From Oscillospiraceae bacterium (GTDB lineage Bacteria > Bacillota > Clostridia > Oscillospirales > Acutalibacteraceae): a stretch of DNA of 64,000 nt. How positions within the stretch are numbered: the stretch's first letter is position 1; each line of letters opens with the position of its first letter. The stretch lies in NCBI GenBank assembly GCA_015066015.1, contig SVPE01000005.1, positions 68,533-132,532 on the forward strand, in the 5' to 3' direction. Positions 29,701-43,817 of this stretch are shown piece by piece. Both the position numbers and the translations under genes were made by a program. The notes under the pieces are model-generated. The model was not told the origin of the DNA. It made no database searches and saw only the letters and a list, made by a program, of their open reading frames with translations.

Positions 29701-32700
29701 ACTTCTTCCCAAGGTTTACCTTGTTGACGAAGCAACAGGCGAAAAGACAAGACTCGCAGAGCCTCTTCCCGCTAAGTTCTTCGAAATCATGAGCACATAT
29801 GCTATCAACTATGACAGCATGACAAATGCTCAGAAGAAGGACGCAGCAAATATCAGAACTCTTGAAGTAACCGAGTGGTCAGTTGATAAGGCAGACGTAC
29901 TTATGTATCTCCTTTCAACAGTTTGCTCTGACGACTTCCTTGCATTCATCGGCAACCTTGCTAAGGCAGAAGAAGGCACCGTTCTCGGTGATGTAATCTA
30001 CGGCCTTGCAGGTGACGAAGACCTTGTAATCAACATTATCTCAATGCTTCTCAATGAGTATAAGCTTGTATATAACAAGTACGCTCAGGTTGACATTACA
30101 AAGATCAATGTTGATCCTAAGGATCCTCTTACCGATACAAACCTTGCACAGGCAATCCAGGCAATCGACGGTCTTGTACCCGCAATCATCGGTCTCCTTG
30201 TTAAGGATGCTGATTCACTCAAGGGTCTTGTTGAAAACCTTGTTGCAGGCGCAGACCTCGGCAACCTTCTCATGAATCTCCTTGTTCCTCTCCTTGCAGG
30301 TCTCGACATCGACGAAATCCTCGGCTATGTCAAGGAATTCAGTAACCTCAATGTCAAGCTTGATCCTTCCGCATGGACTGCAGATGCTGACAGCGAAATC
30401 GCTAAGTTCATCCTTGCAGCTGATGAGGATAAGGACGGTAAGGTAACATGGGCAGATGTAGAAGCATTCTACACTCAGTATGAATTCACATACACAATTC
30501 CTGCAGTTGGTGCAGAAGGTGAAGAAGGCTATGTAGCAGCTAAGACTGAAACAGTCTTCAAGCCCGCCGGCACAACGAAGATTACAATCGGTGAAGGTAA
30601 GGACGCTAAGACCTATGACCTCACAAAAGTTAACGAATACGAATACACCTACACCGTAACAACAGGTGAGGGTGAAGAAGCTAAGACAGAAGAAAAGACC
30701 ATCATCCTTGATAAGGACGATTACACAACATATGATGTTGACGGTAACGAAGAAACTGCTGATGTTGAAGTAACACTCAGCAAGCCTGTCCAGAAGTCAA
30801 AGATGGTAAGCGAATATGATTGGAACATCGATAACTTCGACGGTCTCAAGAACTTCGCAGTTGACCTTCTCAAGCCTCTCGACGTAGTATTCGAGCTTCT
30901 CCTTGCAGGTGCAAACATCATCGTTGCTCCTGATACTAAGACAGATGTTGAACCCTATCCCGCAGAAATCACAGTACGTGGCGGTGACGGCTACAACTTC
31001 GCAATCATTCCTCTTCTTGAAGCTCTCGGCGCAACCGGTCTCAAGACTCAGGCTGAATACGAAGCTCAGGCTGCAACTGACGGTTCACACCTCAAGTATG
31101 TTCTTGACGTACTCTTCGCAGAAGTTGAAGAAATCCTTGCAACTCCTGTATCACAGCTTATGTCAAGACTTGCAAATCTCTTCTACTTCCTTGGTAACAA
31201 CTCCGCAAACGACCTCGTTGATAACCTTCTTGCTCCTGTCAATACTCTTATTGCAGAAGTAGATCCCATCTTCCCGCTTGCAATCAACATCGATGTAAGC
31301 AAGATCGGTACAGATGATATCATCGGCCTCTACCTTGGTAAGGCACACGACGGCGTTGAAGCTGGTATCCATGTAAATGTAGAATCCACTGCTATTGCAA
31401 CACTCCTCAATGACCTTCTTGCAGGCATCGAAATCAACGGCACAAAGCTTGGTCTCAGCCTTGACCTTAACTGGCTTGAAATCGCAGCTAAGATGGCTAA
31501 GACCGAAGACGCTACAAAGCAGTCAACAACCGGTGCTAAGATTGCTACAGTTGCTTCCAAGATGGATTATAAGTCATATGAAAACGTTGTAGGTAACACC
31601 GAATATGCAGACGGTAAATACTACAATATCCAGGGTGACGTAGTTGACACCTTCATAACTCTCCTTCAGGTTCTTCTTACAGACAACAATACTGAAGCTC
31701 TCAAGAACCTTATCGAAGGTCTCCTTAAGGATGCACCTCAGGAGGTTAAGGATATTCTTGATGATATCCTTTCAGATCCCGACGCAATCGAAAAGCTTGT
31801 TGGCGTTGTAGTTCTTCTCCTTACCGGTAGAGGTGAAATGGAAGACTATCCTCTTGCCTTCGCATACAAGTTCCTCGGTGAACTCAACTTCAACTACAAG
31901 AATGACGAAATCAACGCAGCAATCAGCAAGTTTGACAAGATGGTTGTTCGTGAGGCTGTTGGCATCCTTAAGATGTTCGGTACTCCCGCAGCTGATAAGA
32001 AGGAAGAAGATTACAACTTCCTTGAGAAGATGGTAGTCGGCGTTTCCGATAAAGAAAATGCAACTCTTGCCGATATCGTTGACTGGCTCCTCGGTGAATT
32101 CGCATTCACTTCAGAGAACTTCACAGGTCTTATGGAAATCCTCAACAATGTTCTTGCAGATGCTATCACAGCAGAGCTTGCAGACATTCTTGCAACAATT
32201 CTTCCCATCAGGCTTATGCCTTATGAATTTGCAGAGGCAACAGGCAACGCTAAGCTTCAGGCTTATGTTGGTAAGGCTGTAACAAAGGCAGTTGATGCAC
32301 TTGTATTTGCAGACGATGCAACTGATGAAGACAAGGCAAAGGCTATTGACGAAGCTAAGAAGGCAGTAACATGGGCAGACGTTCGTGCAGCCTATGCAAC
32401 ATCTGCTGAAAAGGACGGCAAGACTGTATGGACATACAACTACGGTGAAGGCGACAACGCATTCACATGGGGTGTAGAAGATAAGGATACATTCGTAGGT
32501 GCAATCCTTGACCTTCTCAAGCCTCTCAACCCGATCCTCGACTTCCTGTTCGCAGGTAAGGAACTCGCATTTGAAATCGAAGGCGTTAAGCTCTGGGGTG
32601 CAGACGGTTACGCAAACGCAATTGTTCCTCTTCTTAACGCTCTCGGTCTCAAGCAGCTCGGCGTTGAAATGCCCGCAACTGCAGCAGATTCAACAACAGC

Positions 32701-35700
32701 ACTCGGCTACATCGTTGATGCTCTTCTTGGCACAACAGAGGCAAAGGGTGCGGTAGATGCAATCTGTGAAGCTCCCATCACATCAATCCTTAAGATTGTC
32801 GGTAACCTCAGCTACTTCATTGCTAACGGTAACCTTGACGAGCTCATCCAGAACCTTCTTGCTCCTGTATTCGGTCTCCTTGACCTTGCAGAATCACTTG
32901 TATCAAGAGAAGATCTCGATACAATCATCGAAGGTCTTGCAAAGATTACCCTTCCCGGCGGTAAGGCACTCAACATCACTAACATCATCAACATTGCTGG
33001 TGCTGAAGGTGAAGGCCTTGTAGCTCTCATCAACGAGCTTATCGGTGGTATCAGAGTTTACGAGAAGGAAATCGTTGTAGAAGACGGTAAGAACGTAAGT
33101 AAGATCGTTGTATATGATAAGGCTTATGTTGAAGATCATCCCGAATTCGACTGGTGGGCAGTTGATAAGACAGACGCAGACGGCAATGTAGTTTACGAAA
33201 CGGACGAAGAAGGTAACGAAGTTCTTGATAAGGACGGCAAGCCCGTCGCAGAACAGGTTTACTACAAGGTTCTTCAGATGATCAACCTTCTTCCCGATGA
33301 CTTCTTCAAGCAGTTTGCTAAGTATGTTGTTGAAGAAAGCGAACTTAACGGTGTTGCAGTAACAACAGTTGGTGCAGACGTTGACAGCTGGACAATCAAC
33401 GTAGGCGACGCACTCATGTACGTTCTCTCAACAGTTCTTGACTACGACTTCTTCGAGACAATTCTCAAGAAGGTAGGTCTTGACCTCAGCCAGGGTATCG
33501 GTGCAACTGTTCTCACAATGGCTGATAAGGAAAATGAGCTTATCGACGTACTTGTAATGCTTCTTAACGATTATAAGGTTGTATACTCAAAGGTTGAGCA
33601 GGCAACACTTCCTGCTGATGTAACTACACCTTACACTAACTTCGGTCAGGATAAGGACGGTAACGATCTCCTTGACAACGAAAATACAACCAATGCAGTT
33701 GCAGCTCTTGATCCCATTATCAATACTGTAGTTGCAATGCTCGCAGACGGTAAGACTCTCAGTGATCTTGTAAACGGTCTCATCGCAGATGCTGACCTTG
33801 CAAACATCATCATGAATGCTCTTGTTCCCGTACTTGCAGGACTTGATAAGAACGAGAATCTTGACCTTGATGCAATTCTCTCATATGTATATGAGCTTAC
33901 AAACATCAAGCTTGAAACCCTTGCTCCGACTCTTTGGGACGATGATTTCGGTTCAGCTCTTGTAACCTTCATCGATGGCTCAGAGACTTGGGCAGAGGTT
34001 GAAGCTAAGTATACTCAGTATGAATATTCATACACAGCCGACGGCGCAGAAGAAGCTACTGTAGTTTATAAGCCTGAAGCAGGCCGACATGACTACACAG
34101 TAACTGTAGGCGAAGGCGAAAATGCAAAGACTTACGATCTCAGACCTGTACTTGACGGTACAACCCAGAAGTCCAAGATGCTCAGCGAATTCAACTGGGG
34201 CATCGAAGATCTCAATGATCTTGTTCCTCTCGTATGTGACCTTCTTGCACCTCTTGATATCGTATTCCAGATTCTCCTTAGTGCTAAGCCTATCATCGCT
34301 CTTGAAGACGATGTAACAAGCGATCGCAACGACATCAGAATCATGGGTGGTTACGGTTACAACTACGCTATTATTCCTCTCCTTGAGGCATTCGGCGCAG
34401 ACGGTCTCCTCACTCAGGAAGAATACGAAGAAAAGGCTGCAGCTGACGGTTCACACCTCAAGTACATCCTTGAAACACTCATCGGTGAGGTTGAAGAAAT
34501 CCTCGAAACACCTCTCAACGAGCTTCTTTCAAGACTTGCAAACCTCTTCTACTTCATCGGCAGCGACGGTATCAACGCAATCGCTGATAACCTCCTCGCT
34601 CCTCTCAATACCCTTATCGAAGAAGTTGACGATCTCTTCCCGCTTGCAATCAGAATTGATGTTGCAGCAGATGAAATCCTCGGTCTCTACCTCGGTAAGG
34701 AACACGAAGGCATTCCCGCAGGTATCACTGTAAACGTTTCCGGTGCAGACCTTGCAGCTCTTATCAATGATCTTATCGGTGACCTCACGATCGGTGAAAT
34801 CCATCTCAACCTCCACCTTGACCTTGACTGGACAGAAATCGCAGCTAAGATGGCTAAGAAGGATACAGATGGTAAGATTCTCACCACCGGTACGAAGCAG
34901 GTATACAACCTCGGCACAGTTAAGAATCCTGCTGTTGCTGATCTTGTAAATCTCACAGGTGATGCAGCAAATGCAATCGTAACGCTCCTTGACACAGTTC
35001 TTACAGAAGAAAACTGCAAGAACATCTATACCCTTGTAACAGGTCTCCTTGGCGATATGGATCCCACACTCAAGAGTGTAATCGAAGAGCTCATCGGTAG
35101 CCCCGACTCAATCAAGGGCATCGTTGCAGCAGTAGTTCTCATCCTCACAGGTGAATACGAAGTTGCAGAGCTTGATTACATCTTCAAGTATCTCGGTGTA
35201 CTTACATTCGCTAAGTCCGCAGATGCTAAGACAGCAGTTGAAAGCCTTGACAGAGTTCTTATTAAGGCAGTTCCCGTAATCATCGAGCTCCTTGCAAAGG
35301 ATGTAACAGATACAGAGAACTTCCTCTACAAGCTTTACCATGGCACAAACAAGAATGCTACTCTTGACAACATTGTCAACTATCTCCTTAACGACTTCCT
35401 GTTCACAGATTCAATGATGAACACCATCACAGGTGCTCTCCTTGGTATCCTTAAGAACCTCGGTACAGATATCACGGATATCCTTAAGGACTTCCTCGGC
35501 ATCGATCTTGCTCCTGTAGCATTTGCCGCAGCTTCCGGTAACGCACAGCTTATCGCATATGTTGGCAATGCAGCAACCTGGGCAGACGTAGTAGCAGCTC
35601 ACACCGATGCAGACGGTAACCTTGCAGCAGTATTCACAGACGTTGCAGGTAAGGAAGCATGGGTAGGCGCAATCCTTGATATGCTCAAGCCTCTTGAAAA

Positions 35701-38700
35701 GGTTCTTGCATTCCTTCTTACAAATGAAGACCTTGTGGTAACCGTTGAAAATAACGGTCAGAAGGCTCAGCTTACACTCAAGGGCGGTAACGCTTATGAG
35801 TCAGCTATCGTTCCCATCCTCTACCAGGGTCTCGGTCTTGAAGAAATCATCACCGGCACTAATAAGGCAAAGGTTGAATCCGCTGTTAAGGTTGATTCTG
35901 CAAATGCAGCAATTGAAGCAGTTGTTGACGCACTTCTTGTTGACCTTGTAGGCGCAATTAAGAAGGCTCCTCTCTCAACAATCCTTACAGTAGTAGGTAA
36001 CCTCGGTTACTTCATTGCAAACGACGACGTTGCAGTTGCAATCCAGAACCTTGTAGCTCCTGTACTCGGTATCGTAGATGCTCTCGGCGGCGTAATCTCC
36101 AGAACACAGCTTGATACTCTTATCGAAGGTCTCGCTAAGATTGAGCTTCCCAACGGTAAGATGCTCAACATCACCAACATTATCAACATTGCCGGCGACA
36201 ATGGTGCAATCCTTGTTGACCTCATCAACGGTCTCCTTCCCGGTATCGAGATTAAGGATGATCAGGGTAATGTTATCCAGGTAATCAATGCACTTCCCGA
36301 CACCTTCTTCCTTGACCTTGCTAAGGCAGCTGTTAAGGTAACAGATCCCGAAACAGGTCTTGTTGAAGGCGAAACAGATGCAAAGACATGGACCACCGAT
36401 AATGGCGGCGCAATCATGTACGTACTTTCAACCGTACTTACAACTGACTTCCTCAACATCCTTTGCGATGTAATCGGTATTGAAGAGAAGACAGAAGACG
36501 GTAAGGACAACATGGTATACGGTATCATTACTTCACTTGCAGGTTCTGCAGATGCAGTAGTTGATCTCCTTCTCAAGCTTCTCAACAGATATCTTGTTGA
36601 ATACAAGGCATATGTACAGCCTGAAATCAATAAGACAAAGATTAACTATGAAGGCGGCGAAGCTGCTCACAGACAGTTCAATCAGGTTATTTCAAACCTT
36701 GACGGACTTATCCCCGTAATCTTCGAACTTCTTGTTAAGCAGGAAGGTGTAAACAACCTTGCAGATCTCGTATATCCGTTATTTGTTAAGGATGACATCG
36801 CTAACCTCCTTGTAAGTGCTATTGCTAAGCTTCTTGCAGGTCTTCCCGCAGAGACAATTACAATGATTGAAGATCTTGTAACTGATCTTGCAAACGTCAA
36901 GAATGCTACAGTTAAGGATGCAGACGGCAACGAAGTTGAAGTATTCAGCATCGCACCTACAGCATTCAAGGCTGACAACTTCAAGTCTAAGCTTGACGAA
37001 TACATCGGCGATGCAAAGACTTGGGCAGAAGTATGGGCAGCACACAGTGAAGACAAGAAGGATGAAAACGGTAATATCGTTTATGCTAAGGATGCAGACG
37101 GCAAGACAGTTGTTGATGCTGAAGGCAATCCTGTAGCAGAAAAGGTAGCATCCGCATATGCTTGGAACATCAAGACTGTAGATGACTTCATCAATCTCAT
37201 CTGTGACTTCCTTGCACCTCTTGACTGCGTACTTAACCTCCTTCTTTCAGGCGGTATGGTAAGAGCAGACTTTGACACAAATCGTCCTAACGAGACATTC
37301 ATGGGCAAGAGACTCGCTGTATTCGATGATATCGCAATCAGCGGCGGTAGCGGTTACAACTACGCAATCATTCCTCTCCTTGAGCTCTTCGGTGTTGATG
37401 CTGATACTCAGGAAGAGTACATGATCGCAGTTGAAACCAATTACAACAGCGCACTCTACCCCGTACTCACAGCACTCTTCGACAGAGTTGATGAAATCCT
37501 TACAGCTCCTGTTGAAAGTCTCCTCGATATTCTTGCAAACCTCTGCTATGCCCTTGGCACAGGCAGCGTTGCAACAATCGTTGAAAATCTCATTGCTCCT
37601 GTAAACAATGTAATTGCAGCAGTTGATGAAATCTTCCCGATCGCAATTCCCATCGACGTAGGCGCTCTCATCAATGGTCAGGCACTTAAGGTTTACCTTG
37701 GTGAAGCACATCCCGGTATCGATTCAGGTATCACCTTCAAGCTCGAAGGCAATGATGTAGCAGCACTTCTTGAAGATGTAATTGCCGGTATCAACATCGG
37801 CGGTGCATCACTCGAAGTTGACCTCGATTGGATGGCACTTGCAGCTGCAGCCGCAGCAGACGTAAACGGTGATGGTAAGGGAGACTTTGACGGTTCAAAG
37901 ATGAGCACCAAGTGGGATATCTACAACGGTGGCGCATACAAGAACCTCAAGGGTGATGCAGGCGACACATTCGTAACACTTATTAAGACAGTTCTCACAG
38001 AAAAGAACTGGAATGCTCTTAAGGAAGCTCTTGGCCTTGATCTCGGTGACTTCAACACAGTTGTTGACGGCATCATCAAGGATCCCACAAAGCTTATCGA
38101 CCTTATCGGCAGTATCTTCAGTATCGAAGGCGTTCACTACATTCCTGTACAGAACAGAAAGGTAGAAGCTAAGCCTTACGACTACACAACATACCTCTAC
38201 ATGACAGAGCAGAATGCTGACATTATTGCTCAGAACATCGACAAGCTTGTAAATGACATCCTTCAGGCAGCCGGCTTCGGTTCACTCAAGGGTCTTATCG
38301 GTACACTTCTCACTAACAAGCTTGCAGGTGACCTCATCGGTAAGATTACAGGTCTCCTCGGTGGCGATACAGTTGGTCCTATCCTCGGAACAATTGCAGG
38401 TCTTACCGGCGGCGAAGATCCGATCCTCGTTGTATACGATGCAGCAGGTAATGTTACAAAGCTTAACCTTGACCTCACAGTTAAGGGTTATGCAGATGCA
38501 TACGACAATTACGCTAACCATAACAGAGCCTTTGCTCAGGAACTCCACAGAGTTGCTAATGCAAACGGCACATGGGCAGATGTAAATGTTGCTAACATCG
38601 ATTGGGGTGTAAACGGCACAGTTACAAGCTTCGCAAATGCATTCGCATCAATCCTCAATCCTCTCAACAGTGTTCTCGAACTTCTCCTTGTTGGTGAAGG

Positions 38701-39874
38701 CAAGTCCCTTGGCTTACTTCCCGCTAAGGACGAAAACGGCGAATACAAGAAGGATGCAAACGGAATGCCTGAATGTGTTGTAAGCATCAAGGGCGGCAAC
38801 GGTTACGATTACGCAATCATTCCTCTCCTTGAAGCATTCGGTCTCAAGTCAGGCGAAGTTATGAACGTAACAGCTTATAACAACGCTTATAAGGCAGATA
38901 ACTCCAAGCTTATGGGTTACATCCTTGAGAGAGTTGGCTTCTTTGCTGACAGACTTCTCAACAAGCCCATCGACGGTCTTCTTACAATCCTTCCCAACCT
39001 TGCATACTTCATTGCAAACGAGGGTGTCGGACTTGTAGTCAGAAACCTTGTAGCTCCTGTTTACTCAATTCTTGGTCTCCTCGGTCTTGACCTTATGGAA
39101 ATGCTTAACCTCGGCAATCTCCTTGGCAGCATCGAAATTCCCATCGACATCCTCGGCGAGAAGCTTGGTCTCCACCTTCCCGATATCGATTGGATGAAGC
39201 TTGCACAGGAAGGCGCAAGTGAAGTAGTAGAAGTTACAACTTCACGTTCACAGGCTGCTAACTCCTTCGTCAATGCACAGAGACTTACAAACCAGGCAGA
39301 CGTTGATAATTACATTAAGAATTATCCCGTAGGCTATGAAGGCAGATCCAACAAGCTCACTCAGACCTTCATCGTAGCAGATAAGGGCGACGTTCTTACA
39401 CTTGTCTTCACATGGCTCTTCGAGCTCTTCGAGGATCCTGACAACCAGAACGCTCTTGTTGAGTGGATTGCAGCAACCTTCAACCTTCAGTCCGGCGCTA
39501 AGGAAACTGTAAGATATGCTATCAACCAGCTCTTCCTTAAGGCTAAGATTTATAACGCACCTGATATCATCGTAGGTGGTCTCTTCTCAGCTCTCGGTGT
39601 AGTACTTGTATTCAACGAAGCTCTCAAGGGAAATATTACTGAAGTTGTTAACATCTTCAAGGAACTCTTCGGTGCAGCAGGTAGCGGCGGATGCGCATAC
39701 TCAAGCATTGCTAAGATCATGGAAGATCTTACCGGTGTATGGGATGACACAATCGGTTCCGATCAGGATCATGAGGACGCAGTTGAAGACGCTGAAGAAA
39801 GCCTTAACTGGTTCCAGAGACTTATCAAGAAGATTAAGGAATTCTTCCAGAAGATTTTCAGTATCTTTAAGTAA
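8738..39874 (+). CDS. giant secreted modular protein, 10,378 aa, unknown family
   Basis: The 31,137-nt frame has no stop. SD AAGGAGG lies upstream of the ATG and the signal peptide is MKVGKKALSLLLAVIMIMSTMSVSFSVFA/ATN. Codon usage is consistent throughout and 15 internally homologous modules are present. A possible C-terminal TM segment (IIVGGLFSALGVVLVF) is followed by the amphipathic tail LNWFQRLIKKIKEFFQKIFSIFK. A terminator lies 39 nt downstream. Confidence 0.93.
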   Translation: MKVGKKALSLLLAVIMIMSTMSVSFSVFAATNTTADIYSAIVMHYDSLMDAIDKATVADESKRDTSGVPVKDGSEWVVKRDTLNGGWLAVSRAIASYAKGTVATNKTYVDLVEKIKLDAAGYAGSNGHPVADYNAILEYYKFGSTATGTFATQETVTLNIGTGFDLLAFKDVASIVDKTYSKATLKFTPKGELATGYTLSTADDISFTTEDFVEAGTDVAVIKGVLEQCVAADAFKTWFNAGTLTTQQLADMTNLLALFDTTMALAGLGYTEAEIWDHYVAPEVGKTYTETKAWYDNAGARAEAEPKADAYKERIDNLMATSTTAMTAEQLRDHKRAVETVIQEMDNDQFSVLVYQIVNEKEADYIGAAGRKVETYLKELGVKVGQAYAPLYADELVALATSVDSLKTKNDVELAEGQAWEDTEEYRANLNWLEAASELISNIDNYVLTGATFADIAESKTAADNAITEALYNKVASKVGELSLEIYGSTYREDKAAMDSIMANTILVGRSYSAVYEIAQEFIGYYNKALSLKNTASMQAVYESIYPDGLDAYEAYVHTLKAAAAKAYYDAISIVDTYISEAGKVAYYNFEVIISKANAISSSDGTYSVVGAFLADDPAYVPATGDVKPEDISALYNKIYTSGGYLDKAYAFKTGLNNLRNLAYTNANEQVVDKKLLAYILRQENVTGSAYAWESMLGNVSVDKIREFVNDIELVQQTGIETKNGKITAGGIEDLMSLAVEDLDKILISNDLGTLLNSLTAKENEETGATVGFLGVWGFDYTFKNPEGGTTTVKAGDPCKNLREFLINTIVGLLWGGSLQTTLFKLLSETVGGAVYNFGGAAFDVVVATKDGWQWLPEILHMAIPVMPHDYVENWTNPLTGDTNKTYQQIAQDYYVDWYKYFTGAAFGATGHAEYDYTDILYVLDKAPIDKKCNDDTTEWRSYWKGFTYADNISNDNRTEYRPGNVITEGSSAGQALDARYWGEANGQKQLPFCNDGANCTNEDHYFDSKKAWHVNDWDDFYRTFAVATCGLHVPLAELVTKKSLSPGDSEASNLFGEVDILAVGNGRGLDATLHASELGDALYDRLFIPLYRLLGIEGFYNVNTNPGGYHNKADIRSASGSYAKGNGRVSVGSIKDSGVTLWKYVLEPIVYWLENTLFVSPVKTIAELLPNLLTMLEYDQLIPKLKNINVDINATIKPMGITVNLDVTELNLSQIIMPLLEGLGLNQENLSKGINGLLGVLLGGERVTSKPNMNTTTDKWLMQVTKVTEEDEFGNKVTVNKTSDTEPAAWKSSADGNTYYLKNPGLLTATLYGLMVQENDPTTTENETLNNAFLDWIFLNGGTKAEIPLQIPVNRFMATGSLKGGDHPTAESITIPGVFSSVTNYHIYAEAGTSMLVLLRWLLNDGTLDSIMPLLNGLIKPTVDPETGKESSILDTIIPLVDGQADTLMAIIICLLNDYVIGFESFQDPAQNTNDWGKWNAEGTEFTPYLTDGGASQFKYGTVFQKYLSEGNKDVTANELAAGYGTGFTDADLLAKANLAVANVDKTIAKLVPTLFVALKDTLLGVDAIRDLGFEAVIEKAEKAIAEGNLDAVTLETVVLDTVIGNDLVDMIMNLVFGNGLPTKAKDAAGAAIQAHTDGETMTQTYTDGKGNTTTTTYYITAGSESAPLAYDANGDVEIVRQVKYALDADGNETDTIEGFVVNEGLLGGLFADPESILNKVLGALGDFNLDISPAGFYGLFSDTAYEEKTGTTAAFIKTAGANTHLATWLKSQAEKFSGKTLSSHAATKAELKNMTWGDIRAPKGTVWFDENTTDVIEKFNRFAEMLCDLLYPLNPVLAFLLSGQDITLFDELKLQGENGYSKGIVAILEALMLDAACMSQNSFDNYVYTAAIGISPIGYKNDANVNVDNLSSGTIIKDGETITKRFAVTKNSPLKPLLYAIGQLLFGTSDGTVDGLLDAPLTVLFSRLPNIAYNLYLFKGENGKNTCNFSIAVKNLIAPVTKVLEIVDPVLARLVNLDINELLDSFLDIESLINNLINGLAGLDEGTGSSVAIFEFGKLAADSATVDLNATTYRHGASKFTRFYGAPGKFFITLVRTLLTKDVVGAIGGLVEGIFNKEGENKTPEELEADQRVRDIITMIENNLCKPDTENKLAGGAYIDYLTSIIIDIFTDYLPEEGAFYFYEIINRVDEELIKLEDQIDAMSLDKYGIKHDGYDWATKPVDENGNVLFTEADVNETIENLDYVIRKAVPDVLSTLQSNGVIGGDLVASLQGDDGLWGLLKGLALDYALKDDGLTWLANAIIGLFGEGGSTSTTKIIQQALKAAGFDMTFDAFMYKKGADGKIDKSQPTAIYDYFTYGFYKKDGKLQSETGKMDWYYLDADHNNKADDINGDGNIDKNDEVELTFVQIYKNHSYELYETDDDGNLVIVDGQPKKKAVQIQITEEREEKNAEGVIEKVTYYKYIVLDDNGEETAEVIWLNESGKTEVVDGTVTKKLVADTKDKKVLDEDGNETNVTVYETALLSTAYPQVKTAEGYKYTYTNADGEVKEYYGAYQQMTVLDSGEDNDKGENIYYTLSPVYSEDIGEREWSWDIDDIIAGESESRDVFTLRKVKFINTLWDVLEPFAVVFSTLFAGDALRLFDTLNIEGGFGYDDYLLPLMRAFGLDSIIEMLGAEKLSQLQTKDAGGNPIEHLMTRDEYMAKVYNADGSINPEGVGYTVKNVVNYIFYFVEILCNYPVETLANALPTLAYFLYADGLTSILNGVLVPVTTLTNRLNEIIDLDVNAIGAGLIDYLATGDWANFQESLGGFMYIDPDTGNLVTNVDANLNLTYSILSLITNLEFDLSGIVGEDDPYEGKYGLVLFLNKENEHMAKQLLKDAAELEKNGGATAEQIKQMRQQARDCRAGTLKGFLKSIAALGDPVSEKQGLANEYIYKNYADYVYISSTGSVHVSKAEVLMFLLDFIFENNTLKEVIGSLLGYDLTDENTSDAELLDEIITNVFNNPNALVNLIVSLLTDYDVKQIVGVELKEIEAENHFEFYEDAGFDTHEEVLEHNKNLAAGEEKVTEISRVKTSATIDNLDALVGKILNLSILKDMLAKEDDPATAEDESGAFNKLFGITTDDTITLQGIVDAVFETYLYDDKGLNSIMDMLIGLLGGEGASQIVNIVLDILAGSGYDLTPEAFKTNVPQLAATIDKAEDLNEDGKISWDEVVKANSKYQYVVKNADGEVTATYFADEKGLTKLDHDGDAATEEIDVIADMVQKQTERKVDKQVTDETTGETSTVKVTEYKYTYSVKNAAGELEDKEVWLEEAGKTEWIETPDDPETDENEEVKHLVEAEMYDTDKQKTAVKISATWGLQTRDDFVDVLWNCIKPLAPIFAALFCEGELTLFDKISIKGAAGYDGFVLPLIKALGIPALRANKNADGTWSDDLTTANENEGEYFLKADKLVDYATYKATVYGSDGILGTGDDNGKIMLTTITDALFALVDSLCARPVNTLLTIIPYLAHFIESDGVDAILDNLLVPVTTITEMVKDIYKIDLLGMVKDLLRGLIKDMNDKAGETSDSTKPEDQATTGGAAAAYVLNVIEESEADAGQSAGEAIISELTDPAPALDLSGGDGSNYKFKDIIVELLEGVSINGTALNTIIDPEFIFLNLASIAWLPGVMKADNSGWDRYPSQKITVTINADRRGGSHSLSDAAVYTVDRESVLIKVLNDIVFTDGIRDLIGDLIKFDFGKDAMTTLTEEDSNYLLTVLLYGVFEDPEALERLLIDLLSWYEIEYEDARVKKTDVENAYDLGTTEPIDYEAAGLDKAQMEKLPEDFDSLIGKIVPAVIGMLPADALGDIKLQGANLEEMVHNLLADLMMDKEVTNDEGVKEMKYGFATQLVELLVNLLGGNATVSMIVGLLPTIIEGMDVELKDFKKVNTAFNTYFADYDTWAEAYEGLKTIKKYVAPDEPAADYVAPAYEEGTLNLYAVDENGKPVPEYAVDENGANIPVYANGTKVTDAWDNVWYTAAGTPANDEETALENTYVVKTVDGKIVYKYQYELKLTNTNSFGIATYQDVLDLVSQILAPFAPVLRFLLTEADLVALDGVHLTGGDGYDRFIIPLFEMLGVDKYIGAQKFLNKTDFAALDNAAFTAKVVEYIDGLISMVVNTPIQTIVDLVPELVFFVYSDGLAQAVEQLVAPLLTLVDMVNDITAKEVVIEGRDDALVALDIVALITDLINDNLMKPNNIAEIDGFYGDNGLITRLLTAEGLEALLQGLLDNANAWIYAYEYTIPKDMVEGATEDEVVTVYFNSADLDGATHIPTNGNGKDMTFTLTAVPDKNKTPIDLGLDKDGDGTADAAPIKGIFRWILEKTCKIEKVDTIRTYGAVNGKVWGVKANRADTLVQIISETLLGGGMLTSLLNSFGVEIKEGDILDTILKALTGENKYQLFVVLLTYFNEYDVETMLMDYLSFEKVEYAYETYVEGTRLTQRKLRRAIKKLDGSILTVVPELIQMLEEVEFIKMLLDKIGGYHGQSLKDLVHELLMAYAFNDQTMNQLMGLLIGLLGGEDLAGTLNTVLPLVNDIVGIDITPYGFYEATTSDAIKAYMEAAFAAFPAGPVLDDKGEPVLNDDGTPKMTTVKDDFTWADLAKYYTVYVYSYNDVTKTTKYEYTYEKDGKTEYYYVDEAVAADENGKYILKDGDNVYELTATQEVTKDFYSYETNYMYSKNADLHGTPVEGVDGKTWFGYEQATDTEGNLSWADEAKGIPEIKTVTKTVNKVDAEGNNIVVDGVIQTEEISEQVRATRVNALEGDAAFAWGIDAKTSYEDKADKFIDILAGIVVPLEGVLNFLLRGDSLYILPDEKTENSGVLEFYGNNGYENVIMPLFQALGVDQVGGTIVSAADYEAGRGTALTLTAITDGIFSIVEALTDGPLEYIFTLLPSLSYFISCNGPEIVLNNLLSPVLALLNLADPIVGDLLDDLLGATLSGVFADYMPEDIDFTETTNYKAPIYVEVDGTGEFEGQMVKVPARTDSTTVTFRDETYYIDAGTDEGEIIEGKYVVTTETVDGELVPDFEEYNAYALTDLLKICGENGDNLIKILNKLVGPLLLAEDATEEDKAAFQLLPETFFEDYAKHAITINKQTANADFYYYYEDAEGNRIKIKDDLYSSDMGEIKEARYVVDWFKVDIADSAVYLLDNVLSESLLNEIARIAKIDINKEGDILGGILKNLIEGNFNGLVVADIITALFENYTIKYNELYGEYITPDHSHLNTLETQDDKDKAARVPGQLDTIIENALPAIAPILSDLLAPKEGAEPTILNDIFDNYDTIANDAAVADLYEVVEYLLDDLVFSDELVNTLAALIINLIGTTDIVGTIIEYFGLTGIKLDPQSYLATVKKAYENKTEMADAVAALAGIIGEAKTWADVVKNDTTPLYAYEYVDGVNEDGTAKKFTVYLADENATTYELTKTEGEGEEAKEVKYEFALTQVLDADKNRVVKAEYNKEENGENVADVTWGVNAASDKKTAFIKALAVIVEPLFPVLQLVLQGKTLTLIGHDKAAYEPVNMVEYNADGVATTIIDDSRTGEEIGNGYVELMGVNGYEELLVPILDAIGGLEAFGAYSADNTDGIMTVAEFCAINNAYDMLSYIVNVVFGFVNNLVEAPVTYLATYLPSLLYFIGSDGVYNAVHSVLQLVNALIAVAEPLIGANGIKLSDTIGLPLDLLMLKLDDSTVPGKVQKTVDGKFVYIAKGDENKEEIYLDKAGLTKNGETEIEAVMVDGMVTVEGLCSLINGLIKKDNLINKDIILKLAGYLGDYAVINTVKRNATSALYDTKLDAYVNMNGDIVAKKDGDIWVDAYGNATTKPATGSQMITIVGDTKYTLTGLLQFALADGLVGGLVDTSEMEGILKTIIDNVMGPDATKNVTEILIKLLNKYVITYKAIEEPAEALVPAATDYAKYGVEKTEVQLALGNIQKLLPEVLDLLGVGSLDKLVADNLYTDKVVNGIIAMLVGLLGGLDEKTWGTITDILGYVKDIVGLNIDITPAAYAAEGNKLAPFINAVDVKRDVVDEDGNVTGEERIPVADLTWADVAEFYTKYEYRYMVEAAKPAEGVEGEEGYKAPVEAKYVTVWFADADLNGKDHTPTTGDYAGKTFKLEKVETVYYGYEYTIPAVGEEGAEDYVAAKTETLKSTDSELTEYKVGEVTYALTAKGEVERVHNTKVESDFVWGVAEGATLNEKADKLVAVVIDLLKPLDGVLELLLAGGVYEFDGTTYGDSLGAFEEINIMGGSGYNYAIIPLLEALSVPADKILTQADYEATIATKGTLGYILETVLHTVNDNLDKPLDFVLGLFANLAYTISKNGATTFVSNLIAPLSEVIEAIEGVLPVAIKVNLMALMDGGSVAEILLGSDVALKGAEVGLTLDLDCDTLEALLAKVLAKFVAGFDITISFKDIAAKSAKLDEMGDIEYFNSKVDPKWDICLGIPGKNIQGDTAATIITLLAMVITTDNIDALLQMLNLDINTLDKPIADLINKAIESPDVLIGAVIKLLANNYDVVGVIEAMVFYFLGEAEYDYSNIKGGLLNGGHSAVNSAISKFDKMVNNLIPKLLKLLGNDLDKPVEIIADIYNGLGEDAADADIKAVVDYLLNDLVFNDKMMNQLLGLIVGLLGGIDEKTFKTIVDIVKEVLGIDLSPAGVAAISEANGGKVAAFINAHEASDKDAGLTWADIANAHAWYEYKYCVVEAKEAVGTEGEEGYVPAVEAKYVTTHFADADLDGEDHTPTTGDYAGKTFKLEKVTKDDKHVTKVILEETWNISDKDDFLGILYEVTAVVEPLLAFLFKGENINILIDDFGLKGSDGYTHALIPLAKALHIEIEEDVTKFDDANEMLKEVVNGIFGLVEDIEKAPISTILEVLGSASYFIANDGVALVINNLIAPVTGLISIFEKKTTVEVNGEIVEKSEGITMADINALLKSLIKMDLNDITGIAGADGSKLVSMINGLLPKVYLVDEATGEKTRLAEPLPAKFFEIMSTYAINYDSMTNAQKKDAANIRTLEVTEWSVDKADVLMYLLSTVCSDDFLAFIGNLAKAEEGTVLGDVIYGLAGDEDLVINIISMLLNEYKLVYNKYAQVDITKINVDPKDPLTDTNLAQAIQAIDGLVPAIIGLLVKDADSLKGLVENLVAGADLGNLLMNLLVPLLAGLDIDEILGYVKEFSNLNVKLDPSAWTADADSEIAKFILAADEDKDGKVTWADVEAFYTQYEFTYTIPAVGAEGEEGYVAAKTETVFKPAGTTKITIGEGKDAKTYDLTKVNEYEYTYTVTTGEGEEAKTEEKTIILDKDDYTTYDVDGNEETADVEVTLSKPVQKSKMVSEYDWNIDNFDGLKNFAVDLLKPLDVVFELLLAGANIIVAPDTKTDVEPYPAEITVRGGDGYNFAIIPLLEALGATGLKTQAEYEAQAATDGSHLKYVLDVLFAEVEEILATPVSQLMSRLANLFYFLGNNSANDLVDNLLAPVNTLIAEVDPIFPLAINIDVSKIGTDDIIGLYLGKAHDGVEAGIHVNVESTAIATLLNDLLAGIEINGTKLGLSLDLNWLEIAAKMAKTEDATKQSTTGAKIATVASKMDYKSYENVVGNTEYADGKYYNIQGDVVDTFITLLQVLLTDNNTEALKNLIEGLLKDAPQEVKDILDDILSDPDAIEKLVGVVVLLLTGRGEMEDYPLAFAYKFLGELNFNYKNDEINAAISKFDKMVVREAVGILKMFGTPAADKKEEDYNFLEKMVVGVSDKENATLADIVDWLLGEFAFTSENFTGLMEILNNVLADAITAELADILATILPIRLMPYEFAEATGNAKLQAYVGKAVTKAVDALVFADDATDEDKAKAIDEAKKAVTWADVRAAYATSAEKDGKTVWTYNYGEGDNAFTWGVEDKDTFVGAILDLLKPLNPILDFLFAGKELAFEIEGVKLWGADGYANAIVPLLNALGLKQLGVEMPATAADSTTALGYIVDALLGTTEAKGAVDAICEAPITSILKIVGNLSYFIANGNLDELIQNLLAPVFGLLDLAESLVSREDLDTIIEGLAKITLPGGKALNITNIINIAGAEGEGLVALINELIGGIRVYEKEIVVEDGKNVSKIVVYDKAYVEDHPEFDWWAVDKTDADGNVVYETDEEGNEVLDKDGKPVAEQVYYKVLQMINLLPDDFFKQFAKYVVEESELNGVAVTTVGADVDSWTINVGDALMYVLSTVLDYDFFETILKKVGLDLSQGIGATVLTMADKENELIDVLVMLLNDYKVVYSKVEQATLPADVTTPYTNFGQDKDGNDLLDNENTTNAVAALDPIINTVVAMLADGKTLSDLVNGLIADADLANIIMNALVPVLAGLDKNENLDLDAILSYVYELTNIKLETLAPTLWDDDFGSALVTFIDGSETWAEVEAKYTQYEYSYTADGAEEATVVYKPEAGRHDYTVTVGEGENAKTYDLRPVLDGTTQKSKMLSEFNWGIEDLNDLVPLVCDLLAPLDIVFQILLSAKPIIALEDDVTSDRNDIRIMGGYGYNYAIIPLLEAFGADGLLTQEEYEEKAAADGSHLKYILETLIGEVEEILETPLNELLSRLANLFYFIGSDGINAIADNLLAPLNTLIEEVDDLFPLAIRIDVAADEILGLYLGKEHEGIPAGITVNVSGADLAALINDLIGDLTIGEIHLNLHLDLDWTEIAAKMAKKDTDGKILTTGTKQVYNLGTVKNPAVADLVNLTGDAANAIVTLLDTVLTEENCKNIYTLVTGLLGDMDPTLKSVIEELIGSPDSIKGIVAAVVLILTGEYEVAELDYIFKYLGVLTFAKSADAKTAVESLDRVLIKAVPVIIELLAKDVTDTENFLYKLYHGTNKNATLDNIVNYLLNDFLFTDSMMNTITGALLGILKNLGTDITDILKDFLGIDLAPVAFAAASGNAQLIAYVGNAATWADVVAAHTDADGNLAAVFTDVAGKEAWVGAILDMLKPLEKVLAFLLTNEDLVVTVENNGQKAQLTLKGGNAYESAIVPILYQGLGLEEIITGTNKAKVESAVKVDSANAAIEAVVDALLVDLVGAIKKAPLSTILTVVGNLGYFIANDDVAVAIQNLVAPVLGIVDALGGVISRTQLDTLIEGLAKIELPNGKMLNITNIINIAGDNGAILVDLINGLLPGIEIKDDQGNVIQVINALPDTFFLDLAKAAVKVTDPETGLVEGETDAKTWTTDNGGAIMYVLSTVLTTDFLNILCDVIGIEEKTEDGKDNMVYGIITSLAGSADAVVDLLLKLLNRYLVEYKAYVQPEINKTKINYEGGEAAHRQFNQVISNLDGLIPVIFELLVKQEGVNNLADLVYPLFVKDDIANLLVSAIAKLLAGLPAETITMIEDLVTDLANVKNATVKDADGNEVEVFSIAPTAFKADNFKSKLDEYIGDAKTWAEVWAAHSEDKKDENGNIVYAKDADGKTVVDAEGNPVAEKVASAYAWNIKTVDDFINLICDFLAPLDCVLNLLLSGGMVRADFDTNRPNETFMGKRLAVFDDIAISGGSGYNYAIIPLLELFGVDADTQEEYMIAVETNYNSALYPVLTALFDRVDEILTAPVESLLDILANLCYALGTGSVATIVENLIAPVNNVIAAVDEIFPIAIPIDVGALINGQALKVYLGEAHPGIDSGITFKLEGNDVAALLEDVIAGINIGGASLEVDLDWMALAAAAAADVNGDGKGDFDGSKMSTKWDIYNGGAYKNLKGDAGDTFVTLIKTVLTEKNWNALKEALGLDLGDFNTVVDGIIKDPTKLIDLIGSIFSIEGVHYIPVQNRKVEAKPYDYTTYLYMTEQNADIIAQNIDKLVNDILQAAGFGSLKGLIGTLLTNKLAGDLIGKITGLLGGDTVGPILGTIAGLTGGEDPILVVYDAAGNVTKLNLDLTVKGYADAYDNYANHNRAFAQELHRVANANGTWADVNVANIDWGVNGTVTSFANAFASILNPLNSVLELLLVGEGKSLGLLPAKDENGEYKKDANGMPECVVSIKGGNGYDYAIIPLLEAFGLKSGEVMNVTAYNNAYKADNSKLMGYILERVGFFADRLLNKPIDGLLTILPNLAYFIANEGVGLVVRNLVAPVYSILGLLGLDLMEMLNLGNLLGSIEIPIDILGEKLGLHLPDIDWMKLAQEGASEVVEVTTSRSQAANSFVNAQRLTNQADVDNYIKNYPVGYEGRSNKLTQTFIVADKGDVLTLVFTWLFELFEDPDNQNALVEWIAATFNLQSGAKETVRYAINQLFLKAKIYNAPDIIVGGLFSALGVVLVFNEALKGNITEVVNIFKELFGAAGSGGCAYSSIAKIMEDLTGVWDDTIGSDQDHEDAVEDAEESLNWFQRLIKKIKEFFQKIFSIFK
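11950..12295 (+). repeat. module core 0 (degenerate first copy)
   Basis: ..LYDRLFIPLYRLLGIEG .. VSPVKTIAELLPNLLTMLEYDQLIPKL; matches the IPL..LG and LP.L...L halves of the later cores. Confidence 0.5.
14198..14775 (+). repeat. module core 1
   Basis: FNRFAEMLCDLLYPLNPVLAFLLSG..LQGENGYSKGIVAILEALMLD..LPNIAYNLY..KNLIAPVTKV. Confidence 0.75.
15908..15943 (+). other. EF-hand / dockerin-like 12-residue Ca-binding loop inside the giant ORF
   Basis: DINGDGNIDKND fits D1-x-N3-x-D5-G6-x-I8-x-x-x-D12. Confidence 0.5.
16583..17078 (+). repeat. module core 2
   Basis: WDVLEPFAVVFSTLFAG..IEGGFGYDDYLLPLMRAFGLD..LPTLAYFLYADG..GVLVPVTTL. Confidence 0.8.
18341..18376 (+). other. EF-hand-like 12-residue loop inside the giant ORF
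   Basis: DLNEDGKISWDE fits D1-x-N3-x-D5-G6-x-I8-x-x-x-E12 and runs into the recurrent (T/S)W(A/D)(D/E)V motif. Confidence 0.5.
18830..19354 (+). repeat. module core 3
   Basis: WNCIKPLAPIFAALFCEG..IKGAAGYDGFVLPLIKALGIP..IPYLAHFIESDG..NLLVPVTTI. Confidence 0.8.
20927..21340 (+). repeat. module core 4
   Basis: VSQILAPFAPVLRFLL..LTGGDGYDRFIIPLFEMLGVD..VPELVFFVYSDG..QLVAPLLTL. Confidence 0.8.
23188..23626 (+). repeat. module core 5
   Basis: LAGIVVPLEGVLNFLLRG..FYGNNGYENVIMPLFQALGVD..LPSLSYFISCNG..NLLSPVLAL. Confidence 0.8.
25274..25819 (+). repeat. module core 6
   Basis: LAVIVEPLFPVLQLVLQG..LMGVNGYEELLVPILDAIGG..LPSLLYFIGSDG..SVLQLVNAL. Confidence 0.8.
27415..27856 (+). repeat. module core 7 (A subtype)
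   Basis: VIDLLKPLDGVLELLLAG..IMGGSGYNYAIIPLLEALSVP..FANLAYTISKNG..NLIAPLSEV. Confidence 0.8.
29153..29542 (+). repeat. module core 8 (B subtype)
   Basis: VTAVVEPLLAFLFKG..LKGSDGYTHALIPLAKALHIE..LGSASYFIANDG..NLIAPVTGL. Confidence 0.8.
30422..30457 (+). other. EF-hand-like 12-residue loop inside the giant ORF
   Basis: DEDKDGKVTWAD fits D1-x-D3-x-D5-G6-x-V8-x-x-x-D12 and is fused to the TWADVEAF module-boundary motif. Confidence 0.5.
30841..31270 (+). repeat. module core 9 (A subtype)
   Basis: AVDLLKPLDVVFELLLAG..VRGGDGYNFAIIPLLEALGAT..LANLFYFLGNN..NLLAPVNTL. Confidence 0.8.
32485..32899 (+). repeat. module core 10 (B subtype)
   Basis: ILDLLKPLNPILDFLFAG..LWGADGYANAIVPLLNALGLK..VGNLSYFIANG..NLLAPVFGL. 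Confidence 0.8.
34211..34636 (+). repeat. module core 11 (A subtype)
   Basis: VCDLLAPLDIVFQILLS..IMGGYGYNYAIIPLLEAFGAD..LANLFYFIGSDG..NLLAPLNTL. Confidence 0.8.
35651..36094 (+). repeat. module core 12 (B subtype)
   Basis: ILDMLKPLEKVLAFLL..LKGGNAYESAIVPILYQGLGLE..VGNLGYFIANDD..NLVAPVLGI. Confidence 0.8.
37181..37633 (+). repeat. module core 13 (A subtype)
   Basis: ICDFLAPLDCVLNLLLSG..ISGGSGYNYAIIPLLELFGVD..LANLCYALGTG..NLIAPVNNV. Confidence 0.8.
38621..39091 (+). repeat. module core 14 (A-like, last copy)
   Basis: FASILNPLNSVLELLLVG..IKGGNGYDYAIIPLLEAFGLK..LPNLAYFIANEG..NLVAPVYSI. Confidence 0.8.
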
Positions 39875-39912
39875 GTTTCACGGTTAACAAATAACCGATT
39901 AAACAAAAATTA

Positions 39913-39944
39913 CTCCCTGCCTCAATCGAGGCGGGGAGTTTTTC
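39913..39944 (+). terminator. Rho-independent terminator of the 10,378-aa gene
   Basis: CTCCCTGCCTC-aatc-GAGGCGGGGAG (one G-U pair) followed by TTTTTC. Confidence 0.8.
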
Positions 39945-42951: not shown

Positions 42952-43647
42952 TCAGATATCGCTCTGTTCAGCTTCGGCTACAGGTTGCTGGTAATACGCC
43001 TGAACACCTTCGGGTGTGTAAGCAACGTTTGCAGGCTGAGCCTGAGGAGCAACAGGAGACTGTGCTGTATATACGGGGTAGGGATACATATAACCCTGAT
43101 TCTGAGCGGGATAAGGAACGTATACGGGAGTTTGAGCCTGAGTCGGCTGAGGCTGCTGAACTGCCTGTACGGGCTGCTTGGGTGTGCCGGCCTTTTTAAC
43201 CTGAGGCTTCTTCATTGCTGCGGGATCAGGCTTGTCAAGAGGTTTTGCATCGATAAGCTGCTGAAGAAGTCTGATTGCTTCAGAAAGTGCTCTGAAGATA
43301 ATTGCGATAATTCCGGCAACAAGCATAGAAAGCGAGAATGCGAGTACGGTTGCAGTTTCGGTAAGGTCTGCAGCAACGATACCTGCGATTCCGCCGATAA
43401 TGAGGATTACGAATGAAAGCGCGTTGAGTAAAATTGCAACAGAATTTCTGCCGATTTTTCCTACACCGTTTGAGGCTTTTACAAGTTCCTCATATTCTTC
43501 GTCAGTGACGATGATAGGGGTGACCTTTTTGCCGTCAGTCTTTGTTGTAAGACCCCAGGATTTAAGGTCGGCATCCTTTTTCTTGTAATATTCTTCTGCA
43601 CGGAGTTTTTTCAGTTCCTGGATTTTGTTTTCAACTTGTTCAAGCAT
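42952..43647 (-). CDS. membrane protein of unknown function (coiled N-terminus, 2 TM helices, Pro/Gln/Tyr-rich tail)
   Basis: 231-aa ORF with an AAAGGAAG RBS. TM segments are VAILLNALSFVILIIGGIAGIVAA and VLAFSLSMLVAGIIAIIF. The tail is QPVQAVQQPQPTQAQTPVYVPYPAQNQGYMYPYPVY. Confidence 0.7.
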   Translation of the reverse strand: MLEQVENKIQELKKLRAEEYYKKKDADLKSWGLTTKTDGKKVTPIIVTDEEYEELVKASNGVGKIGRNSVAILLNALSFVILIIGGIAGIVAADLTETATVLAFSLSMLVAGIIAIIFRALSEAIRLLQQLIDAKPLDKPDPAAMKKPQVKKAGTPKQPVQAVQQPQPTQAQTPVYVPYPAQNQGYMYPYPVYTAQSPVAPQAQPANVAYTPEGVQAYYQQPVAEAEQSDI

Positions 43648-43808
43648 AATATATTCTTCCTTTCGGTGAAAGCATTATTTGAATATGTTCTTTAATAGAT
43701 TACCACATTTTTATAAAATGTTCAAGTATTATATGAAAAAAATAGGGCAGTATAGAGAGTTTTATTTTTTGTTTACAATATTTACCACAAAGAAAAAACT
43801 CGGACTTG

Positions 43809-43817
43809 TGTTATAAT
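43809..43817 (+). promoter_or_regulatory. extended -10 element TGTTATAAT upstream of the SH3b-peptidase gene
   Basis: Exact TGnTATAAT 49 nt upstream of the RBS-supported ATG. No clear -35. Confidence 0.4.

Follow-up and report, generated by a model that had tools for sequence, protein, structure and literature searches.

Surface attachment in Gram-positive bacteria is classically described in terms of sortase and LPXTG signals, lipoproteins, SLH, LysM and GW modules, and cohesin-dockerin pairs. Another device is found in the Escherichia coli penicillin-binding proteins PBP5/DacA, PBP6/DacC and PBP4, which are exported by Sec and whose last ~18-25 residues are amphipathic and do not span the membrane. 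In PBP5 the tether to the outer face of the inner membrane is an amphipathic helix made up of the last 18 residues, and removal of the helix releases the protein (PMC2909392). Anchors of this type are a functional class and not a homology family, and the pestivirus protein Erns also has a C-terminal in-plane amphipathic helix anchor, which prefers negatively charged lipids (PMC4536213). Here we describe a stretch of 64,000 nucleotides from an Oscillospiraceae bacterium of the family Acutalibacteraceae (assembly GCA_015066015.1, contig SVPE01000005.1, positions 68,533 to 132,532), hereafter called the window, in which two adjoining genes on the + strand (1185-8309 and 8738-39874) encode secreted proteins of 2,374 and 10,378 amino acids (aa). 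The tails of these two proteins are best explained as subtypes of a single C-terminal module for surface retention, which is restricted to one lineage.

Both window proteins start with a classical Sec signal peptide and end with a helix of high hydrophobic moment that does not span the membrane, which are the structural features of the PBP5-type anchors. The window tails have no sequence relationship to those anchors: they are rich in aromatic residues and carry a specific conserved motif, one subtype is framed by Cys and His residues, and they form a portable module found on many unrelated Gram-positive surface proteins of up to 10,378 aa. The Erns anchor, which is viral/eukaryotic, is much longer (~60 residues) and likewise unrelated in sequence. 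An earlier note on the window had pointed out that both proteins end in a similar basic and aromatic amphipathic tail, and had read it as a shared membrane-interfacial helix or as a tag for an attachment system. Translation reproduced both tails as quoted, with NVWGAIFRFFHKIIKLFTGEFKCCGNPDPMYG encoded by 8211-8306 and the C-terminus of the giant protein consisting of WDDTIGSDQDHEDAVEDAEES, then LNWFQRLIKKIKEFFQKIFSIFK and then the stop codon. Both are indeed basic, aromatic amphipathic helices, but they belong to two subtypes and do not share one single motif, one being Cys-free and the other having the form CTCACH-x24-CCG. We named type A the Cys/His-clamped helix C-x-[C/H]-x-C-H-x24/25-C-x-C-G-x-x-H-Y-end, and type B the Cys-free terminal helix h-h-x-K-I-x-x-[FW]-F-x-K-[LI]-[FI], which lies at most ~10 residues before the stop and follows an acidic spacer. 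Trp, which had been taken as the first residue of both tails, is the third residue in each, and the proposed pairing of KIKEF with KIIKLF has to be replaced by the register of the profile alignment, in which LIKKIKEFFQKIF stands against AIFRFFHKIIKLF.

The features of the two genes are as follows.

1185..8309, + strand: gene for the 2,374-aa secreted protein, with signal peptide MKNYLKKSLSLLMAVLMILSCWVWIAPDKAEA, Flg_new repeats and Cys-rich mini-repeats
8187..8306, + strand: variant type-A tail CTCACH-RDNVWGAIFRFFHKIIKLFTGEFK-CCGNPDPMYG, whose alignment with the type-A profile starts at CTCACH (13.4 bits)
8738..39874, + strand: gene for the 10,378-aa secreted giant, with signal peptide MKVGKKALSLLLAVIMIMSTMSVSFSVFAA
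39557..39625, + strand: moderately hydrophobic segment APDIIVGGLFSALGVVLVFNEAL, two residues longer than in the earlier note
39740..39802, + strand: acidic spacer WDDTIGSDQDHEDAVEDAEES, directly before the tail of the giant
39803..39871, + strand: type-B tail of the giant, LNWFQRLIKKIKEFFQKIFSIFK, a Cys-free cationic amphipathic helix (net charge ~+5) ending on the last residue

The giant contains the type-B core as LIKKIKEFFQKIF, followed by 4 residues to the end, and lacks the N-terminal Cys/His cluster, so that it falls outside type A. The 2,374-aa protein has this cluster (CTCACH, following the rule C-x-[C/H]-x-C-H) and exactly 24 residues from CH to CCG, the canonical spacer that holds the amphipathic helix, but it ends with CCGNPDPMYG (CCG...Y, not CxCGxxHY) in place of the type-A terminal knuckle C-x-C-G-x-x-H-[YW]. 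Since the same form is conserved in two orthologues of the same genus, CSCTCHRNGVWPAIFRFFHKVIKMLVGHFVCCGNPDPRYNN and CSCTCHRNGLWPAIFRFFHKIIKMLTGEFGCCGDPDSRYGK (ending CCGNPDPRYNN and CCGDPDSRYGK), which within the last 200 residues are only 38-39% identical to the 2,374-aa protein where the sequences match, this variant tail is a conserved sub-variant and not a decayed copy. Both window tails scored ~14 bits against the type-A profile, with FIYKIxxFFWKLF superposed on LIKKIKEFFQKIF, and given this common register the two subtypes share a helix core.

A further motif precedes the tail of the 2,374-aa protein (window 7700-8190) and of many type-A proteins: GH-x-D-x-[ND]-x-DG-x-CD-x-C, a calcium-loop-like DxNxDG joined to a CxxC, which follows arrays of ~38-aa Cys mini-repeats (TCTExG...CxxCG...GH). 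A CxxC was located 35-60 residues from the end in 128 of 220 type-A tails, and the same pre-tail motif is present in a type-B protein of 1,198 aa.

All open reading frames (ORFs) of the genome (2.38 Mb in 42 contigs) were scanned, and the hydrophobic moment was calculated for 4,585 of them as the best 18-aa window within the last 30 aa. The giant's tail reached 0.80, ranking second among the 4,585 ORFs, and that of the 2,374-aa protein 0.67, compared with a 99th percentile of 0.65 (genome mean 0.34, standard deviation 0.115), so that both C-termini are clearly amphipathic. The highest-moment C-termini mostly belonged to signal-peptide proteins whose last 20-30 residues formed Phe/Trp/Ile-Lys amphipathic helices after acidic runs. 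In a set of 1,989 non-overlapping ORFs, of which 326 have a signal-peptide-like start, 24 of the 48 C-termini with a moment of at least 0.55 and at least three aromatic residues came from signal-peptide proteins (odds ratio 5.4, P = 5e-8). The core motif [KR][IL]xx[FWL][FW]x[KR][LIM][FILM] gave 20 six-frame matches, 11 of them located 4-13 residues before the stop of long secreted ORFs, as compared to 5 matches in total from the shuffles. This indicated that the tail is real and far above chance. There are ~10 type-A and 17-20 type-B tails in this genome and nearly all carriers have a Sec signal peptide; the stop codon directly follows the tail in 8 of the 9 canonical type-A cases, of which CDHLCHKDGFMGFIWKIVQFFWKLFKMNPVCECGAAHY is an example (carriers 244 to 3,350 aa). 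Besides the giant, type B is exemplified by NSFFGKIKAFFQKIIDWFKNLFK (1,198 aa) and GLIAFFQKIADWFNKIIEWFKNLFN (3,380 aa), with looser forms on ~15 more proteins.

One tail-like motif has another position. On contig C8 a secreted protein of ~430 aa (ORF 36383-37873 on the reverse-complement strand, counted along that strand) contains DVGFFGKIAFFFVKLFKGAYS ~120 residues past its signal peptide, the only internal core-motif match in an ORF of >220 aa; it could be a fused remnant or another use of the helix.

Outside this genome, the 44-position type-A profile was searched against 1.84 billion representative proteins and matched 2,518 cluster representatives at E <= 1e-3, of which 1,197 reached E <= 1e-10. 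Among the best matches listed, the match ended on the last residue of the protein in 150/150 cases (44 to 4,270 aa), and a signal-peptide-like start (heuristic) was found in 133/154 type-A proteins of at least 600 aa, compared with 16% of the ORFs in this genome. The enrichment on secreted proteins, on which the earlier reading depended, therefore holds for this genome and its relatives. The passengers are unrelated to each other and include LRR_5, Flg_new, lipase, transglutaminase-like, C-type lectin, F5/8-C, Big and cohesin proteins. The type-A pattern fits 217 of 220 distinct tails, with Cys (121) or His (95) at position 3, a spacer of 24 (174 tails), 25 (42) or 21 residues (1), and Y (209) or W (8) as the terminal residue of C-x-C-G-x-x-H-[Y/W].

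The 80 named type-A loci, which were retrieved with three closely related query sequences and are biased towards canonical tails, were all from metagenome-assembled genomes, with zero isolates, from human, goat, sheep, cattle and deer gut, and were labelled Clostridia, Acutalibacteraceae, Oscillospiraceae, Ruminococcaceae, Eubacteriales, Faecalibacterium sp. or Ruminococcus sp. Type A was absent from 300 genomes sampled across the order (0/300) and present in 11/300 genomes of the window's family, in 7 of 185 genera including the window's own, with 1 to at least 17 copies. The type-B core profile matched 17/300 family genomes, mostly in ORFs of 2,000-9,958 aa, and the same type-B tail as in the giant was found on ORFs of 9,958, 9,630, 7,627 and 6,605 aa in related genomes. 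About 8% of the 300 family genomes sampled carried the tails. Neither type extends beyond a few genera of a single family of uncultured gut/rumen Clostridia. The portable C-terminal module is present on more than 2,500 protein clusters, and the largest proteins of these abundant bacteria use it. Neither literature searches by tail sequence strings and by topic nor Pfam and NCBIfam searches with five isolated tails gave any description of the tails, the latter yielding only noise at E <= 10 (latarcin precursor, YjdM).

The tails are under purifying selection. Seven canonical type-A tails of this genome were 58% identical at the protein level while 36% of the codons for the same residue differed, from which it follows that the tails are old and not recent copies; recent gene conversion as the source of their similarity was ruled out by the same figure. 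For the giant, 18 homologues of the last 300 aa were obtained, mostly metagenomic fragments, and among 15 distant homologues the final 24 residues were the best-conserved window of this region (85% identity to the giant compared with 52% overall). In each of the two proteins the tail is conserved better than any other part.

A secreted alpha/beta-hydrolase of ~510-560 aa with weak LCAT/Abhydrolase_1 matches, of which this genome has at least 10 paralogues (~520-550 aa), all with an amphipathic tail, made it possible to compare the tail with known attachment modules at the same position. Representative loci are given below.

Contig C17, 8934-10487: hydrolase gene of this genome
Contig C18, 100538-102088: hydrolase gene of this genome
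Contigs C1, C12 and C21: hydrolase genes of this genome, starting at 734, 34429 and 34399, respectively (counted along the coding strand)
Loci L086-L135: hydrolase homologues in related genomes, with varying C-terminal module

Homologues were found in 54/301 family genomes, with at least 5 copies in most of them, including 12/12 type-A and 17/18 type-B genomes. After the conserved enzyme end YPQ[FY][LM] and a spacer, ~47 distinct C-termini were compared. Amphipathic tails with a moment of at least 0.55 made up 22 of these and ~5 more were slightly below this value; 6 had an LPXTG-like motif and/or a membrane span followed by K/R (IPQTG, IADTG, IAGTG and SPDTG, and two spans with KRKR or KKK), and ~10 had dockerin repeats, which Pfam PF00404 confirmed in 3/4 tested. 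Because homologues bear an LPXTG signal or a dockerin at the place of the tail, the tail occupies the slot of surface-attachment modules. Like LPXTG signals, it forms the very end of the protein, is preceded by an acidic or Pro-rich spacer and stands on the same kinds of passengers. The window tails, however, have neither the pentapeptide nor a hydrophobic span with a K/R end; attachment would be non-covalent and sortase-independent. Type I dockerins of cellulosomes and amylosomes are likewise short C-terminal modules, exchangeable with the tail in this lipase-like family, and attach secreted proteins to a cell-surface apparatus; the tail differs in having no Ca-binding DxDxDG repeats.

The genome itself has 3 sortase genes, only 3 or 4 LPXTG-type proteins and one SLH protein. 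Neither cohesin nor dockerin was found in it, Pfam PF00404 having no match in either window protein or anywhere else in the genome. An LPXTG-like regular expression applied to the last 50 residues of all ORFs retrieved three LPETG proteins, one small VPETG protein and one doubtful case, none of them a window protein. Pfam also found no LPXTG, SLH or choline-binding module in either window protein, in agreement with what had been noted by eye. On these counts the amphipathic tail is the commonest device in the surface-attachment slot of this organism. The three LPETG proteins (694, 1,255 and 469 aa) lie in a pilus-type locus (C33:42636-54030) and are followed by two sortase genes; the VPETG candidate is located elsewhere on contig C33, and no LPXTG-type protein besides these four was detected in the genome. 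BspA-type LRR_5 proteins of the genome carry type A (653 aa) or type B (672 aa).

Taken together, the tails are very probably a sortase-independent surface-retention module of some kind, and in this respect the reading of the earlier note gained support from the enrichment on secreted proteins, the amphipathic helices, the conservation of the tails, their position in the slot of LPXTG signals and dockerins, and a cohesin protein for which a type-A tail is the sole candidate anchor. Another reading is a true sorting signal, recognised by an enzyme that cleaves the tail and attaches the protein covalently in the manner of sortase, exosortase or rhombosortase. The strictly terminal location, the invariant last residues, the interchangeability with LPXTG-type signals and a lineage-restricted, multi-copy distribution as in known CTERM systems agree with such a signal. 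To our knowledge, all cleaved sorting signals consist of a short motif, a membrane-spanning helix and a basic cluster, whereas the tails have no membrane span, and they match no NCBIfam CTERM model of the exosortase, archaeosortase or rhombosortase systems (PEP-CTERM, GlyGly-CTERM, Firmicu-CTERM and others). Moreover, no candidate enzyme was found near the tail genes and a discarded signal would not need Cys/His clusters at both ends. Covalent sorting is therefore quite improbable, the least likely of the general alternatives considered here.

How the tails are retained is less certain. The type-A helices combine high moments with a Wimley-White interfacial energy of -6.7 to -8.5 kcal/mol per 18 residues, as favourable as that of membrane spans, while their translocon insertion energy is +8.7 to +17, so they should pass through Sec without stopping transfer and then partition into the interface. 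For the window tails the best 19-mer insertion energies were +10.6 and +17.1, compared with -2.9 to +1.3 for the LPXTG spans of this genome. AlphaFold2 with 90 type-A tails predicted a single helix covering FMGFIWKIVQFFWKLF (predicted local distance difference test, pLDDT, 82). In the mechanism that we propose, the protein would be exported by Sec via its N-terminal signal peptide and the last 20-40 residues, being too polar to stop transfer, would be translocated as well. The tail would then fold into an aromatic, Lys-rich amphipathic helix lying flat and non-covalently in the outer leaflet of the cytoplasmic membrane, and the acidic or Pro/Glu-rich spacer would thread the wall, so that the passenger of 2,374 or 10,378 aa is displayed outside. 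Such a spacer precedes nearly all tails, type-B examples from this genome among them; for type A, the 17 residues that lead up to the tail contain 26% D/E and 8% K/R on average. The spacer of the giant (39740-39802) may act as a flexible linker. A disordered, membrane-anchored protein that threads the Gram-positive wall is known in Listeria ActA (bioRxiv 10.1101/2020.11.24.396366). Recurrence, the strictly C-terminal position, the restriction to signal-peptide proteins, amphipathic helicity, purifying selection and the positional equivalence with LPXTG signals and dockerins are all observed for the tails; membrane binding, metal binding and the passage of the spacer through the wall are inferred. 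Direct in-plane binding of the PBP5 kind seems to us about evenly balanced between being right and wrong.

Several points weigh against it. The giant's tail, with seven K/R and a net charge of ~+5, has a Wimley-White energy of ~0 kcal/mol and would therefore need anionic lipids or wall polymers to bind. A non-covalent helix of 23 residues is mechanically weak for holding a 1.1-MDa protein. For the last 300 aa of the giant, AlphaFold2 (19 sequences) gave a poor model, with a pLDDT of 52 overall and <40 in the tail. The motif K-I-x-x-F-F-x-K-[LI]-F in both subtypes and the terminal H-Y are conserved at the level of identity, which exceeds the usual need of membrane binding and hints at a specific partner. 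Finally, a dedicated enzyme or receptor may exist: a conserved partner gene was not found in the neighbourhoods compared, those of 80 related loci and of the 27 tail genes in this genome, where only tail-bearing lipase-like genes, transporters and regulators recurred, but no genome-wide co-distribution search was made.

Alternatively, the tails might bind non-covalently to anionic wall polymers such as lipoteichoic acid, wall teichoic acid or a secondary polysaccharide, as Listeria InlB does with its GW modules. The type-B tails carry a strong positive charge and that of the giant, given the values above, would depend on electrostatics; the passengers contain InlB-type Flg_new repeats; and giant surface proteins of Apilactobacillus are thought to be attached by a positively charged C-terminal end (PMC12863079). 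However, the polar stripe of the type-A helices is narrow and their hydrophobicity is bilayer-like (-7 to -8.5 kcal/mol), which fits lipid better than a polyanion, and such a polymer would repel the acidic spacer that immediately precedes the tail. We therefore consider wall-polymer binding improbable, if slightly less so than covalent sorting.

The hint at a specific partner leads to the main rival of a membrane anchor, namely docking or self-pairing. Here the tail would be a docking or self-assembly peptide, comparable to a minimal dockerin, that binds a surface receptor or other tails and gathers ~thirty proteins into a surface assembly; for the Cys/His form this might be a metal-clasped antiparallel pair of helices. 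The very high identity across unrelated passengers and genomes, which extends to the Lys residues of the polar face and the terminal H-Y, is compatible with docking, as are the K-I-x-x-[FW]-F-x-K-[LI]-[FI] common to both subtypes and the interchangeability of the tail with dockerins in the lipase-like family. Type B was also present in 7/12 type-A genomes compared with 0.7 expected by chance, a descriptive figure given that related genomes are non-independent. Positions 3 and 32 showed the strongest long-range mutual information, with His at position 3 paired with Asp/Glu at position 32 in 154/165 tails as compared to 20/81 with Cys at position 3, and the two ends of the helix cannot touch in one chain if the helix is straight. 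This covariation could not be separated from shared ancestry, since only 2 independent pairs were located on supported branches of the 36-column tree. Docking is further opposed by the lack of a conserved neighbour gene at the loci examined, by the absence of cohesin from this genome, and by the public metagenome protein P0265. In this protein of 474 aa a signal peptide is combined with a single cohesin, a stalk of Cys repeats and, as the sole candidate anchor, a type-A tail. This is the layout of an anchoring scaffoldin and implies that some relatives combine cohesin-dockerin assembly with the tail as cell anchor. Because the cohesin protein itself bears the tail, the tail behaves like the cell anchor of a scaffoldin and not like a dockerin. 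Docking thus remains a doubtful alternative, though a stronger one than wall-polymer binding.

The Cys/His clusters bear on both membrane anchoring and docking. A cysteine engaged in a disulfide would not be swapped for His, and the interchange of Cys (121) and His (95) at position 3 argues for a metal ligand; zinc or another metal is probably bound by the clusters that frame the helix, C-x-[C/H]-x-C-H on one side and C-x-C-G-x-x-H-Y on the other, and would stiffen or pair the anchor. Zinc knuckles and ribbons (CxxC / CxCG...H) show a similar Cys/His interchange, and AlphaFold2 placed a small, knuckle-like beta-bridge in the terminal eight residues CxCGxxHY. In contrast to zinc knuckles, the type-A clusters stand on either side of an amphipathic helix, at a C-terminus outside the cell, the type-A tail model had no Foldseek match in the PDB and no profile match to solved structures, and the giant's tail is free of Cys. 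A heme-binding reading of CxxxCH is spoken against by the Cys/His swap at position 3 and by the fermentative lineage. We think it unlikely that the metal-clamped helix is recognised by a dedicated receptor or paired with other tails, for example as zinc-clasped antiparallel helices, and so constitutes a new sortase-independent display system of uncultured Acutalibacteraceae-type Clostridia. If this were true it would organise the whole surface proteome, with lipases, BspA-type LRR proteins, cohesin scaffoldins and megadalton fibres, and would add a fourth principle to LPXTG/sortase, SLH-type wall binding and cohesin-dockerin.

If the tails are an anchor, current predictors mislabel adhesin-like giants, lipases and scaffoldins as freely secreted, and the module would be a very small (23-40 residues) sortase-independent display tag. 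It would also explain a rich surface in genomes with almost no LPXTG substrates, and the Cys/His-clamped form may represent an unusual extracellular metal site in strict anaerobes.

A role of the moderately hydrophobic segment of the giant (39557-39625) in the anchor is not supported: its conservation is below that of its surroundings (41% compared with 52% on average for the last 300 aa) and its insertion energy is unfavourable. For the giant alone, the segment could in principle span the membrane and place the last 83 residues, including the helix, in the cytoplasm. It keeps its hydrophobic character and a distance of 82-95 residues from the end in the 17 homologues that reach the C-terminus, and on the same insertion scale the LPXTG spans of this genome include two, the weakest, with values of only +1.1 and +1.3. 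The Hessa free energy of insertion of the segment, however, was +0.6 to +5.4 in 19 homologues; Asp, Glu or Asn is found at both ends, no K/R cluster follows, and the supposed cytoplasmic part has a net charge of -2 to -8, contrary to the positive-inside rule. The segment is also far less conserved than the giant's tail (85%), and the other tail-bearing type-B proteins, compared over their last 45-60 residues, had no comparable segment. A membrane span or hairpin at this position is accordingly very improbable, and the segment is probably a buried helix of a conserved C-terminal domain.

With regard to the rest of the two proteins, Flg_new, in the 2,374-aa protein, was the sole Pfam match of the pair. 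The giant had zero Pfam matches over 10,000 aa (window 8738-38737, E <= 1e-3) or in its last 300 aa, neither whole protein matched NCBIfam, and a profile of the giant's last ~380 columns gave no meaningful PDB match. The two genes form a syntenic pair in two genomes of the same genus, in which orthologues of the 2,374-aa protein (2,340 and 2,272 aa) adjoin the orthologue of the giant. Neighbours of the tail genes in the window include GH3, an SH3b-C39-like peptidase, GDPD and transporters, none suggestive of a tail partner. No link to the tails was found for two genes that lie a few kb beyond the downstream end of the giant gene. One (42952-43647, - strand) encodes 231 aa with a pair of hydrophobic segments and a tail rich in Gln and Pro, but without Pfam match; the product of the other (43806-44822, + strand) is secreted and joins two SH3b domains to a C39-like peptidase. 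Downstream of the giant's stop codon (39872-39874) there is a strong terminator with a 12-bp stem at 39912-39939.

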